From positions 19,224 to 83,223 of the forward strand of contig JAZLBV010000006.1 in the NCBI GenBank assembly GCA_045613925.1: a stretch of DNA of 64,000 nucleotides, in the 5' to 3' direction. Shown here one piece after another: positions 28,347-30,817 of this stretch. The stretch is from Candidatus Enterousia sp. Lineage in GTDB: Bacteria; Pseudomonadota; Alphaproteobacteria; Rs-D84. The position numbers and the translations under genes are program-made. Each line of letters starts with the position of its first letter. Positions within the stretch are counted from its first letter, which is position 1. The notes under the pieces were generated by a model. It was given only the letters and a program-made list of their open reading frames with translations. It was not told the DNA's origin and ran no database searches.

Positions 28347-28422
28347 GCCGGTTTAGCTCAGCTGGTAGAGCATCTGATTTGTAATCAGAGGGTCGGGGGT
28401 CCGAGTCCCTCAACCGGCACCA
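28347..28422 (+). tRNA. tRNA-Thr (anticodon UGU) with atypical T-loop (C at position 55)
   Basis: GCCGGTTTAGCTCAGCTGGTAGAGCATCTGATTTGTAATCAGAGGGTCGGGGGTCCGAGTCCCTCAACCGGCACCA. The cloverleaf fits, and the T-loop reads TCCGAGT. Confidence 0.85.
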
Positions 28423-28432
28423 CAGATTTAAA

Positions 28433-28456
28433 ACACCGACATTTGTCGGTGTTTTA
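28433..28456 (+). terminator. intrinsic terminator
   Basis: acaccgac-atttg-tcggtgt hairpin followed by a T-run. Confidence 0.7.
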
Positions 28457-28464
28457 TTTTGTAT

Positions 28465-28911
28465 TCATTTGTAAATTCTCTTCCATTTTTTATATTTATC
28501 GGCAAAATTTATATGTGCAGCAGGGCTACTTGATGGCAGTACTTGCTTTTCAGATACTTTGAAATCAGTATGCAGTTCTTTTTGTGCTTTCACAAAATAA
28601 TTATATGCTGCTTTGCCGTTAAAAAATATCGTTTTGCCCTTTAATGCAGACAAATTATTATATTTAGGATTTTTAATATTTTTATCTGAACTGCCATCAC
28701 GTTCACAGGATTCGATTACATCCCATAAACCAATATTCAATTTCTTCAATCCGTTAAAATCCTGTTTTTCCAATCCCAACAATCTCCAAAATTGATTATT
28801 GTTGTTTGCATAATACTCTTTCTTGCACAACGACATTTCGCCAGGAAAAGTCCCCAATATAACAATATCAGCGTTTTTAAGGTTAAAGGCGGGTAATCCT
28901 TGTATTTTCAT
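28465..28911 (-). CDS. DNA-deoxyinosine (hypoxanthine) glycosylase, UDG superfamily
   Basis: IVILGTFPGEMSLCKKEYYANNNNQFWRLLG ... IFFNGKAAYNYF ... LPSSSPA. Confidence 0.65.
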   Translation of the reverse strand: MKIQGLPAFNLKNADIVILGTFPGEMSLCKKEYYANNNNQFWRLLGLEKQDFNGLKKLNIGLWDVIESCERDGSSDKNIKNPKYNNLSALKGKTIFFNGKAAYNYFVKAQKELHTDFKVSEKQVLPSSSPAAHINFADKYKKWKRIYK

Positions 28912-28926
28912 AATATTTCTCCTTTT

Positions 28927-30063
28927 TTATTTATTTCTATCTCGTTCTTCCATTTCTTTTCTTAATTCTGTTGTTTTCTTATGCGTATAGGCGGCATTTT
29001 CTATAACTTCAATAAGGAAATTACCAATAATCTCTTCGCTATTGTCTTTTGGGCTTGCTTCGCCATATCTCAATTGCTCTGTTTTAACCCGTTGCTTTTC
29101 CATTTTTTGTTTGCAATTATCTATAATCGAAGCAAGTTCTATCAATTTAGATTCTGGAATTTTGTATTTTTCAACTATATAAATTAAATTTTTATAGGAA
29201 ATTTTTTGATAAGAATCGCGCGTAAAACAAAGACACTCTGTATCTGGAGCATAAATATTATAACGACAAAAATCATATAATACCTTTATAACGTTTAGTT
29301 TAGTTACTATTTTTGTTTCAACATCACATAATCTACTATCATAACATTCATCGTCATATACCCCAAGTATCGCATTATTTGCGCTTACTAATTCACTTGG
29401 TTTAAATACTTGTAATAAATTATCCGTATTAGTTGGTATCGGAAAAATCGTACGAATTTTATCTTTCACATTTTGCTTTAATGCTTGTTTATCTATGTTC
29501 GTTTTACAACCTTCTTTACCACAAATAGATTCCGTTAAATATTTTTCACAATCTAACTCTTTTTGACACATTATTGGATGAAGTCCCGATTCCAAACCAC
29601 AACTATGCATTGAAAAGGGTATTGCACCAACAATTGTAATCATTGATGCAAAAGATACTAATCTAAAAGGAAAATAAACTAATGTTTCCCAACCATATTC
29701 GTCGTAATATTTATTCCTACAATATTGTTTTTCTTCTTCTAATAAACTTGCAGCATTATCTACACAATTGTACTTATCTATCACCGATAAATCTAGTTTA
29801 TATAATTTATCTATATCTGTTGAATCAACAGATTTTAAACCTAATATTGGCATAATTTCAGCCAAATCATCCTTGGTTGGTGATTGTTTTTGTGAAAACG
29901 CATATAACAGCCCCAATTTATCACAATCAGAATTTCTGTCATGTTTGTTCGTTAATTCTATAAATTTATCGGCATTTTGATTATCCTGCAAAAATTCTTG
30001 TTTTGTAAAACCACCACACCCACCAACTACCAAAGCAATCAGCACCAGTAAATAACGTTTCAT
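28927..30063 (-). CDS. hypothetical lipoprotein
   Basis: MKRYLLVLIALVVGGCGG has a lipobox. AGGGGGA RBS. Cys-rich, with no recognisable domain. Confidence 0.55.
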   Translation of the reverse strand: MKRYLLVLIALVVGGCGGFTKQEFLQDNQNADKFIELTNKHDRNSDCDKLGLLYAFSQKQSPTKDDLAEIMPILGLKSVDSTDIDKLYKLDLSVIDKYNCVDNAASLLEEEKQYCRNKYYDEYGWETLVYFPFRLVSFASMITIVGAIPFSMHSCGLESGLHPIMCQKELDCEKYLTESICGKEGCKTNIDKQALKQNVKDKIRTIFPIPTNTDNLLQVFKPSELVSANNAILGVYDDECYDSRLCDVETKIVTKLNVIKVLYDFCRYNIYAPDTECLCFTRDSYQKISYKNLIYIVEKYKIPESKLIELASIIDNCKQKMEKQRVKTEQLRYGEASPKDNSEEIIGNFLIEVIENAAYTHKKTTELRKEMEERDRNK

Positions 30064-30085
30064 TTATTTATCCCCCTATTTTCAA

Positions 30086-30273
30086 TAAAAAAAACCGCTG
30101 AACCATAAGATTGAGCGGTTGGAGGTTAGAAACAATCATATGAGTTGTGCGGTTTATTAGACAAAATGTCATATTCACCAGCCCTCCAACCATAACAGTT
30201 GTAGGGCTTTTTAACGTCAACCCTGACGCATATGATAGGTTTCTACACCCAGAACCACATTGATTATGATTCA
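30086..30273 (-). promoter_or_regulatory. structured leader or sRNA of about 190 nt with its own promoter, intrinsic terminator and alternative (anti-terminator-like) pairing
   Basis: Minus-strand TGTTATAAT at 30280-30288. Terminator aaccgct...agcggtt plus a U-run (30086-30120). Perfectly complementary 9-mers at 30117-30125 and 30183-30191 compete with both the terminator and an internal hairpin. Confidence 0.5.
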
Positions 30274-30279
30274 GATGCA

Positions 30280-30288
30280 ATTATAACA
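30280..30288 (-). promoter_or_regulatory. extended -10 promoter element (TGTTATAAT on the minus strand)
   Basis: Plus-strand attataaca, just downstream of the stop of the 30317 gene. Confidence 0.45.
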
Positions 30289-30316
30289 TCTAAATTCAAA
30301 TAACGCAAGAATAGCC

Positions 30317-30778
30317 CTATTTTTTTGTTTTTTTCTTATTAGAATTTTGCATTGCTGTTAAAATCTCATCAAATACAGCTGTCGTTTTTGGGTGTTTTTT
30401 AGAAAATTTTTGTATTCCCATTATTACAAGTGTCGTTATAAAACGTTCTATATCTTTTTTTGATATTATTTCACTTAAAACATCACCAGATGATTTTGGC
30501 TGTGGCTGGATTGTGGCATTGCACGCACGCGGACAAAACAGACGTGATATTTCTGGAATCCACCAGAAAAAAATGCACGATATAATTGGCAGCATTATAC
30601 AAAATAGAAAATATTTAAATGTTGTATGGGCGCAAAAATTTACATTAAAAACACCAACGCAATAACTTGGTATTTGTAATATGGTCAACATCGTAAATTC
30701 GTACAGTGTGAACACTGAAATAAATATTTTAAACTTTCGCATATAATTATTATATTGAAACGTATGACTGTTAACCAC
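30317..30778 (-). CDS. hypothetical membrane protein
   Basis: 153 aa with 3-4 hydrophobic segments and no recognisable motif. Confidence 0.4.
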   Translation of the reverse strand: MVNSHTFQYNNYMRKFKIFISVFTLYEFTMLTILQIPSYCVGVFNVNFCAHTTFKYFLFCIMLPIISCIFFWWIPEISRLFCPRACNATIQPQPKSSGDVLSEIISKKDIERFITTLVIMGIQKFSKKHPKTTAVFDEILTAMQNSNKKKTKK

Positions 30779-30791
30779 AGGACGTTATTCC

Positions 30792-30817
30792 ATAAAAAAA
30801 CCGCCGAATTGGCGGTT
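30792..30817 (-). terminator. intrinsic terminator after cvpA
   Basis: aaccgcc-gaatt-ggcggtt hairpin with a minus-strand T-run. Confidence 0.7.

Follow-up and report, generated by a model that had tools for sequence, protein, structure and literature searches.

The 64,000-nucleotide stretch of contig JAZLBV010000006.1 analysed here (GenBank assembly GCA_045613925.1; hereafter the window) comes from Candidatus Enterousia, which belongs to the order Rs-D84 of uncultured gut and rumen alphaproteobacteria with genomes smaller than 1 Mb. On its minus strand, between an open reading frame (ORF) of 153 aa (30317–30778) and the gene for a predicted lipoprotein of 378 aa, lies a leader RNA of ∼187–190 nt with promoter and terminator signals of its own (Table 1). 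The extended −10 box follows the stop codon of the upstream ORF (30319–30317) by 29 nt. In relatives, TTGCAA-type hexamers stand at the distance matching that of the −35-like hexamer and a TATAAT-type box is found at equal spacing 5′ of the first hairpin of the RNA. At the other end, the terminator arms (30120–30114 and 30099–30093) form a G+C-rich stem of 7 bp with four G–C pairs, followed by a run of eight U residues finishing at 30087, as expected of an intrinsic terminator; an automatic scan did not list it because the loop limit of that scan is 8 nt. The gap to the ribosome-binding site (RBS) of the lipoprotein gene is ∼10 nt. The encoded protein has a lipoprotein-type N-terminus, shows no match in Pfam and gave no record in an exact-sequence look-up in a protein collection. 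An earlier note, made from the sequence alone, had placed the −10 box, the terminator and the RBS and ATG at these positions and had read the interval as an orphan leader or small RNA (sRNA) with competing helices. The observation is confirmed and the interpretation is supported by the present analysis, except for the word orphan.

The element is one copy of a large, previously undescribed RNA family, and the window contains this single copy. Among 30 loci of relatives anchored on cvpA, three carry the RNA (L017, L023 and L026) and 27 lack it; the genes downstream also differ among the homologues of this locus. Since the element is not syntenic, homologues were sought by a DNA pattern scan of metagenome contigs, which returned at least 120 stretches, about 80 of them clear family members. 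A covariance model of the 3′ domain of the family, R1, turned up additional copies within these loci. Gut and rumen metagenomes contain more than 100 related copies, with one to five per locus. With Rfam 15 at gathering thresholds, the whole window gave six tRNAs only; a permissive scan of 29900–30500 gave nothing meaningful, and permissive scans of 20 relatives gave nothing but weak matches to sRNA-Xcc1 (RF02221). These scans exclude 6S RNA, signal recognition particle (SRP) RNA, transfer-messenger RNA (tmRNA), T-box leaders, known riboswitches and C4 RNA, which agrees with the earlier impression that no known riboswitch class fits. A full-text literature search for the motifs returned nothing relevant.

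From 5′ to 3′, the family is built of the promoter, a hairpin (P1), a GRGGU motif, block Y, CCYC, block X, an optional hairpin (hp1) and UAAA; an upstream C strand (CUCCAAC), a G strand (GGUUGGAGG), hairpin hp3 (GAAUA…AAUAA) and CAC; and finally hairpin hp4, the loop of which is X′, then Y′, a downstream C strand (ACCUCCAACC), the terminator and the RBS and start codon. A compact form of the family lacks hp1, and hp3 of the window copy carries an extra GACA/UGUC stem as an insertion. About 20 nt in loops and junctions are conserved in sequence, namely GAAUA…AAUAA in hp3, the CAC that follows it and the UAAA that precedes the hairpin formed by the upstream C strand and the G strand (hp2). The element has a conserved structured domain, backed by covariation, with conserved unpaired nucleotides, as in riboswitches. 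The full element folds at −65.4 kcal mol−1 with a z-score of −6.1, a value equalled by none of 200 shuffled sequences. Its minimum-free-energy fold contains the CGUCA-GGGU-UGACG hairpin, the AGCCCU/AGGGCU hairpin that encloses a CAAC/GUUG stem, and the AUCAUAUG/CAUAUGAU helix; these had been proposed before. An outer closing helix (aatcata/tatgatt) drawn in the earlier note proved wrong: when the RNA is folded from its likely start site, this segment forms its own hairpin, P1, which is shared by the family.

Two mutually exclusive folds of this RNA, here called OFF and ON, are supported by covariation. In OFF, the X:X′ and Y:Y′ helices give a rod, hp2 sequesters GGUUGGAGG and the terminator is formed, while the ACCU of the downstream C strand pairs with the 5′ GGGU; ViennaRNA gives this fold the lowest free energy in 79 of 80 members. 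In ON, the G strand (30191–30183) pairs with the perfectly complementary CCUCCAACC (30125–30117), a match already pointed out in the earlier note, and this helix, P-AT, closes a three-way junction. P-AT overlaps the 5′ arm of the terminator by 4 nt (AACC), which it takes off the terminator stem. The upstream C strand, which reads CUCCAAC(C) in relatives and changes in step with the G strand that it sequesters, is thus an anti-antiterminator. Forcing P-AT costs on average 11.1 kcal mol−1 at full length and 6.7 kcal mol−1 when the C strand has just been transcribed (ViennaRNA); for the window copy, the rod with terminator is at −64.2 kcal mol−1 and the P-AT fold at −52.8 kcal mol−1. Given that OFF is energetically favoured and that local hairpins form first in transcription, termination should be the default and read-through should need help.

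Covariation in relatives had been suggested as a check, and compensatory changes are present in more than 100 related sequences. In an alignment of 60 sequences covering P1, Y:Y′, X:X′, hp1, hp4 and the local 5′ hairpin, P1 covaries strongly, with 20–31 double changes per pair. X:X′ shows double changes at all six pairs tested, and the longest helix that X and X′ can form has a mean of 7.85 bp in cognate against 5.5 bp in non-cognate combinations; Y:Y′ comes in more than 15 different sequences and still pairs perfectly over 7 bp in 76 of 80 members. Taken together, the OFF-fold helices P1, Y:Y′, X:X′ and hp1 contain 369 cells changed on both sides, compared with a shuffle mean of 130 (none of 500 shuffles reaches 369) and with 63–116 cells in controls with slid partners. 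The local alternatives to the rod are maintained as well: one pair of hp4 flips between AU (30 sequences) and UA (29 sequences), and pair 42–55 of the local 5′ hairpin is GC in 32, AU in 17 and GU in 11 sequences.

The pairing partners of the G strand require more caution, as the metagenome set was picked by a pattern that contains the G- and C-strand sequences. The near-invariance of these strands in that set was imposed by the search and says nothing about function, and the idea that invariant GGUUGGAGG and CCUCCAACC mark sequence-specific recognition was withdrawn for this reason. The copies found without the search pattern are informative: in these, seven sequence variants all hold P-AT at 8–10 bp, and changes in the G strand are matched in the upstream as well as in the downstream C strand (Table 1). 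Such co-evolution of one strand with two alternative partners, of which one reaches into the terminator, argues for a genuine switch, with an expression-platform terminator that excludes the junction fold through the shared AACC. The three mutually exclusive states of the earlier note (hp2, the GGUUGGAGG:CCUCCAACC helix and the terminator) are thereby borne out. The switch has more layers than that note described, in that X:X′ and Y:Y′ compete with two local hairpins.

Table 1. Positions of the parts of the leader and its surroundings in the window, strand variants in copies of the family and bona fide sRNA-Xcc1 copies
Feature	Position	Strand	Sequence or pairing	Basis or remark
−35-like hexamer	30303..30308	(-)	TTGCGT	17 nt 5′ of −10; read from sequence
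Extended −10	30280..30288	(-)	TGTTATAAT	Inferred transcription start near 30273
P1, 5′ hairpin	30252..30272	(-)	GAAUCAUA / UGUGGUUC, 5-nt loop; arms 30272-30265 with 30259-30252	Minimum-free-energy fold
5′ G-rich segment and block Y	30236..30251	(-)	GGGU and UAGAAAC (30245-30239)	Pairs either locally, as a hairpin (30251-30247 with 30240-30236), or at long range, with Y′ and ACCU
Block X	30229..30236	(-)	AUCAUAUG	Pairs with X′ 30142-30135
hp1	30215..30228	(-)	CGUCA-GGGU-UGACG	4/4 pairs covary
Upstream C strand (hp2 5′ arm)	30197..30208	(-)	AGCCCUACAACU	Minimum-free-energy fold
G strand and GCU	30180..30191	(-)	GGUUGGAGG (30191-30183) + GCU	Pairs with upstream C (hp2) or downstream C (P-AT)
hp3	30151..30179	(-)	GAAUA…AAUAA loop or internal loop	AAUA invariant in alignment; stem pairs covary
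hp4	30132..30148	(-)	ACAA / UUGU, loop X′ CAUAUGAU (30142-30135)	Alternative to X:X′
Y′	30127..30133	(-)	GUUUCUA	Pairs with Y in the rod; single-stranded in the three-way junction
Downstream C strand	30117..30126	(-)	A-CCUCCAACC	3′ strand of P-AT (antiterminator) with the G strand
Three-way-junction domain	30113..30192	(-)	P-AT, hp3, hp4	sRNA-Xcc1-like core; R1 59.9 bits, E = 4e-13
Intrinsic terminator	30086..30120	(-)	AACCGCU / 14-nt loop / AGCGGUU + U run	Read from sequence
Predicted lipoprotein gene, 378 aa (proposed regulated gene)	28927..30076	(-)	RBS GGGGGA 30076-30071; ATG 30063-30061	
Family copy	L101:3381		G strand GGUCAGGAGG; upstream C CUCCUGGCC; downstream C CCUCCUGGCC	
Family copy	L117:500		G strand GGGCUGGA; upstream C CCAGC; downstream C UCCAGCCC	
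Family copies	L063, L109		G strand GGUUGGAAGG; upstream C UUCCAAC; downstream C ACUUCCAACC	
Family copy	L106:857		G strand GGUUGGGGU; upstream C none; downstream C ACCCCAAUC	Mini unit
Family copy	L106:429		G strand GGUUGGAGA; downstream C UCUCCAACC	
Family copies	L017, L098		G strand, G to U change; downstream C, matching C to A change	
Bona fide sRNA-Xcc1 copies	L200:1291-1374, L219:2506-2589, L220:2503-2587, L191:3534-3621, L195:10873-10957, L201:1794-1883			Phage contigs and plasmids

A separate observation concerns the two ends of the RNA. In members of the CUAU type (L032, L050:4216-4383, L143 and L103), the P1 loop complements the terminator loop over 5–6 nt with apparent compensation (GUGAUA/UAUCAC, UGAUUA/UAAUCA, GUGAC/GUCAC and UGACG/CGUCA), and in the window copy and L017 the terminator loop complements the 5′ arm of P1 instead (UUAUGGUUC with GAAUCAUAA). 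Over all copies, the two loops match only marginally better than in control, with 4.6 nt for cognate and 4.05 nt for non-cognate combinations. A pairing of the 5′ end with the terminator loop, seen in a first fold, varies with the chosen 5′ end and is not general; it may be a feature of a subfamily.

The weak Rfam matches point to a previously unrecognised link: judged by sequence and structure models, the three-way junction is a distant relative of sRNA-Xcc1. The RF02221 model (gathering threshold 53 bits) gives no match to the window region at E ≤ 10, and 18 of the 20 relatives scanned have no match at E ≤ 1; the other two, L032 and L147, score 32.3 and 32.5 bits on the 3′ domain. Conversely, sRNA-Xcc1 candidates were taken from viral contigs and plasmids, and six of them pass the RF02221 threshold at 65–84 bits. 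With filters off, R1 recovers these six bona fide members at 28–35 bits (E = 4e-7 to 3e-5) and aligns to them end to end; one more candidate widens the range to 26–35 bits (E = 4e-7 to 8e-5). The similarity thus runs in both directions. The element, being below the RF02221 threshold, is not filed as a member of that family. The bona fide sRNA-Xcc1 copies themselves lie 32–71 nt 5′ of an ORF on the same strand (ORF6N, KilA-N, Bro-N or small unknown proteins), and each has a further hairpin on its 3′ side that abuts or overlaps the closing helix, which suggests that sRNA-Xcc1, too, is a cis-acting leader module. Known occurrences of sRNA-Xcc1 are in Xanthomonas integron cassettes, prophages and plasmids, and it has been reported 5′ of symE in the Xanthomonas cassettes and 5′ of an ORF6N gene in the APSE phage.

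In most of 82 family members, an ORF with a Shine–Dalgarno sequence begins 40–60 nt after the C strand on the same strand. The gap between terminator and RBS is ∼10–30 nt in the family, which leaves no room for a promoter belonging to the downstream gene, so these genes depend on read-through from the leader promoter. A stem of at least 5 bp is present at the terminator site in 74 of 78 copies, and in 60 of these 74 at least five of the next eight nucleotides are U. A Pfam census of 59 downstream proteins found Flg_new (Listeria–Bacteroides repeat) domains in 14 and XRE-type helix–turn–helix (HTH) domains in at least 11, the remainder being unknown secreted proteins or lipoproteins. No enzymes or transporters were found among the 59, and the genes do not form the single pathway that a riboswitch typically serves.

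The surroundings of the window copy differ between relatives. In the closest relative, L001, a conserved 150-aa membrane-protein ORF directly adjoins the U32 peptidase gene; at the same site the window has the leader RNA, the lipoprotein gene, a UDG-family gene (28465–28911) and a tRNA-Thr (28347–28422), and in L017 a copy of the leader RNA together with Flg_new genes occupies it (L017:7131-8560). As the contents of the site differ in all three, the leader evidently travels with its gene and belongs to the variable genome. The site (window 28347–30300, L001:7214-7395 and L017:7131-8560) looks like a hot spot for variable surface-protein cassettes. Slightly upstream, between cvpA and the 153-aa ORF, is a perfect bidirectional terminator-like hairpin (30799–30817, AACCGCCGAATTGGCGGTT) flanked by T runs on either side; its arms read AACCGCC/GGCGGTT, as do the typical terminator arms of the family.

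We propose that the leader is a cis-acting two-state transcription attenuator that is OFF by default, is flipped by a putative effector and also yields a terminated RNA of about 190 nt; we assign this reading a probability of roughly 0.58. Transcription would begin ∼7 nt after the extended −10 box. In the OFF course, local hairpins would form first, with hp2 locking GGUUGGAGG onto the upstream C-rich strand, after which X:X′ and Y:Y′ would draw the leader together into a rod. As the downstream CCUCCAACC would then have no partner, its AACC end could join the AACCGCU/AGCGGUU terminator hairpin and RNA polymerase would halt ∼10 nt before the RBS of the lipoprotein gene. In the ON course, GGUUGGAGG would pair with the downstream CCUCCAACC and close the junction of P-AT, hp3 (with its GAAUA/AAUAA loop) and hp4, while X and Y would revert to single strands or to the local 5′ hairpin; the terminator would lose four of its seven pairs and transcription would enter the gene. 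As ON is ∼7–11 kcal mol−1 less stable than OFF, something must favour it. We infer that this is an effector, which might be a small molecule, a protein or an RNA, most likely binding the three-way junction; to judge from conservation, the unpaired GAAUA/AAUAA of hp3, the CAC and the UAAA are the likely recognition surface. Because many surface-protein and XRE-regulator genes have this junction in front of them, such a signal would act on a whole regulon.

Several points weigh against this proposal. The U tracts are poor in 14 of 74 copies, the terminator loops are unusually large (14 nt in the window and 9–11 nt in most relatives, 9–14 nt overall) and either constitutive termination or constitutive read-through could apply. 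The G/C-strand pattern of the metagenome set, as noted above, carries no weight. The downstream genes, which are Flg_new surface proteins, lipoproteins and XRE regulators, suggest no ligand or metabolite, and tandem arrays and short units within the family resemble stand-alone sRNA genes. Finally, sRNA-Xcc1 has been described as a trans-acting sRNA (PMC2996969).

The last two points bear on the strongest rival, which holds that the element is a stand-alone sRNA gene and an extended relative of sRNA-Xcc1: it would always terminate, act in trans or titrate a protein, and lie next to the lipoprotein gene without regulatory meaning, its alternative pairings serving folding, processing or stability. 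Arrays of two to five units spaced ∼190–400 nt apart are found in L101:8450-9400, L106:429-942, L098:498-802, L117:500-805 and L074:2325-2595. A separate TATAAT box and a separate hairpin with a U run belong to every unit, and no ORF lies between the units, including in arrays of three to five; two small genes come after the last unit in L101, the first without a Pfam match and the second with weak XRE-type HTH matches. In ‘mini’ units (for example L106:857-942 and L101:8497-8566), the promoter leads directly into the three-way junction with no 5′ competitor. The junction can therefore also exist as a stand-alone small RNA. The terminator fold being the minimum-free-energy fold in nearly every member fits this rival, as do the differing downstream genes of homologues and the accumulation of sRNA-Xcc1 as an RNA of about 90–100 nt on Northern blots (PMC2996969). 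It is at odds, however, with the orientation and the 40–60 nt spacing to a start codon kept in most of the 82 copies with no room for a promoter, with the position of bona fide sRNA-Xcc1 just 5′ of ORFs, and with a G strand that covaries with two C strands, one of them overlapping the terminator, which is the signature of an expression platform. We regard this explanation as unlikely, and under the attenuator proposal the stand-alone and tandem units would fit a role as decoys for a protein.

A second rival retains the attenuator and dispenses with the effector, the two folds partitioning kinetically or by temperature to give fixed, low and noisy expression of surface-protein genes. The absence of a ligand-suggestive gene association is in keeping with this, as are a host at constant gut temperature with a genome of <1 Mb and few regulators, and the large energy gap in favour of OFF could give merely leaky termination. 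The ∼20 conserved loop and junction nucleotides speak against it: conservation of unpaired nucleotides indicates recognition by something, and the hp3 loops are common to the family and the distant sRNA-Xcc1. The compensatory upkeep of an elaborate ON fold would also be hard to explain if that fold were never stabilized. We consider an effector-less attenuator improbable.

Still less probable, to the point of being a marginal candidate, is a phage-type immunity antisense RNA such as C4 of P1/P7 or CI of P4, in which the junction loops would pair in trans or in cis with sequences over the downstream RBS. The layout is suggestive, with a closing stem and two hairpins, upstream segments complementary to loop and junction, and strands in the order C-G-C that recall seqA-seqB-seqC of P4, and members of sRNA-Xcc1 precede the prophage-typical ORF6N, KilA-N and Bro-N genes. 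The Rfam C4 model gives no match, however, and the complementarity of X′/Y′ to the 115 nt after the terminator is 5.85 nt for cognate and 5.74 nt for non-cognate combinations; with no cognate-specific complementarity, C4-like antisense action on the gene's own RBS was ruled out. A 6S RNA, which the earlier note had kept in view, or another rod-like housekeeping RNA of ∼190 nt would suit the length of ∼187 nt, the rod-like fold and the strongly negative z-score, but is refuted by the lack of any 6S, SRP, tmRNA or RNase P match even at E = 10, the several and partly tandem copies per genome, the absence of the element from the equivalent locus in 27 of 30 relatives and the lack of a central bubble flanked by a long terminal stem.

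Other ideas were tried and discarded. A T-box leader found no Rfam T-box match, and no AANNNGGGUGGNACCGCG-like sequence is present in the alignments. Leader-peptide attenuation was rejected because neither the candidate starts nor the frames that follow GGAGG and P1 show conservation. A hammerhead-like core (CUGAUGAGG…GAAAC) appears in one subtype only, with no stem II between the motifs on inspection by eye. The R-C-C tail behind the closing helix had raised the idea of a tRNA-like element or RNase P substrate, which was not supported: the tail varies in pattern-free copies and is fixed by the pattern in the metagenome set.

The pattern scan also returned sequences of other kinds. Soil and wetland contigs (L038, L039, L062, L102, L114, L134, L136, L140, L144 and L151) share a different conserved element of ∼120 nt, ..CAGCCATCCCACAGAAAA..GGTTGGAAGCCTGACG..GTCACACGACAG..AAACTTCCAACCGC..GCAACTA.ATTCC, found on at least ten unrelated contigs, of which only the ends fit the search pattern; it may be the end of a mobile element or another structured RNA, and R1 gives L102 28 bits. 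L035, L040, L042, L049 and L138 contain low-complexity GGTTGGAGG/CCTCCAACC-like decamer arrays (TTGGAGGTTAGAGG-type repeats), which are chance matches to the pattern and unrelated to the family.

In hosts with few regulators, a single RNA family appears to control ∼10 promoter-proximal sites per genome (extrapolated from four copies in ∼400 kb examined), all of them preceding secreted or surface proteins and small regulators. If so, it would be a main handle on how Rs-D84 bacteria present themselves to host or partner cells. For RNA biology, it offers a new and compact candidate of ∼190 nt in which both switch conformations are backed by compensatory evolution. The link to sRNA-Xcc1, a widespread mobile-element RNA that has carried the annotation of a trans-acting sRNA for 15 years, may call for a new reading of that RNA: it suggests a 5′ leader module that works in cis and not solely in trans. 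A more far-reaching and rather doubtful extension would make the junction the sensing part of a riboswitch or effector-binding class that is new and common to the family and sRNA-Xcc1. In Rs-D84 gut symbionts with their reduced genomes it would respond to a single global signal, for instance a second messenger or a molecule from the host or a partner, and turn on by antitermination a regulon made up of XRE regulators and of surface proteins that vary between strains; a mini form would gate antirepressor-type and toxin genes in prophages, plasmids and integron cassettes.

The family is new, and a two-state attenuator leader is in itself a known kind of device. One parallel is with ON-switch riboswitches of the terminator/antiterminator type, such as the adenine pbuE riboswitch. 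In both, a conserved multi-helix junction is closed by a helix whose 3′ strand runs into the 5′ arm of an intrinsic terminator; because of this overlap, stabilizing the junction would give read-through. The conservation of unpaired nucleotides alongside covarying helices is a further common trait. Riboswitches responding to cyclic di-GMP (c-di-GMP) also precede surface, adhesion and regulator genes, and the gene set of the family resembles the regulons of such second-messenger riboswitches. The family differs from riboswitches in matching none of the Rfam classes in sequence or structure, in its extra anti-antiterminator layer (hp2) and two long-range helices that dismantle the junction, and in its tandem arrays and stand-alone units with their own promoters. 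The succession of C, G and C strands followed by a GGCGG terminator arm recalls the 1:2/2:3/3:4 logic of trp-type leaders, with anti-antiterminator, antiterminator and terminator states, although the family has no conserved leader peptide. Protein-dependent antitermination leaders differ in that no RAT, ANTAR, TRAP or PyrR-type motifs were seen here. The C4 RNA of P1/P7 and the CI RNA of P4 are structured RNAs in the leaders of regulator operons, with complementary segments on both sides of a central strand, and in this they can be likened to the family, which lacks a copy-specific target over the downstream RBS.

The nearest relative by structure is sRNA-Xcc1. Both RNAs have a three-way junction with a G-rich/C-rich closing helix of 9–10 bp, a first hairpin with AAUA-type loops on both sides and a short second hairpin, a junction of ∼6 nt (UUUnGA) and, after an R-C-C tail, one more hairpin, and both lie ∼30–60 nt 5′ of an ORF on the same strand. 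A copy from Aeromonas (UGGCCGGGAGGG..GAAUAAA..GAAUAA..UUUCGAACCUCCCGGCCACCA) comes especially near to the family. They differ in their settings, the family occurring in AT-rich Rs-D84 alphaproteobacteria before XRE regulators, Flg_new surface proteins and lipoproteins, and sRNA-Xcc1 in GC-rich beta- and gammaproteobacteria and phages before ORF6N, KilA-N, Bro-N and symE. Whereas sRNA-Xcc1 is a stand-alone RNA of ∼88 nt that starts at the closing helix, the window RNA starts well before it: the family has ∼85 nt of extra 5′ structure (P1, Y, X, hp1 and the competitor C strand) and adds an intrinsic terminator overlapping the closing helix, and the sRNA-Xcc1 members examined have neither the 5′ competitor region nor a U-tract terminator. 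The window element is therefore best described as an sRNA-Xcc1-type three-way junction to which an upstream dismantling module and a terminator have been joined.

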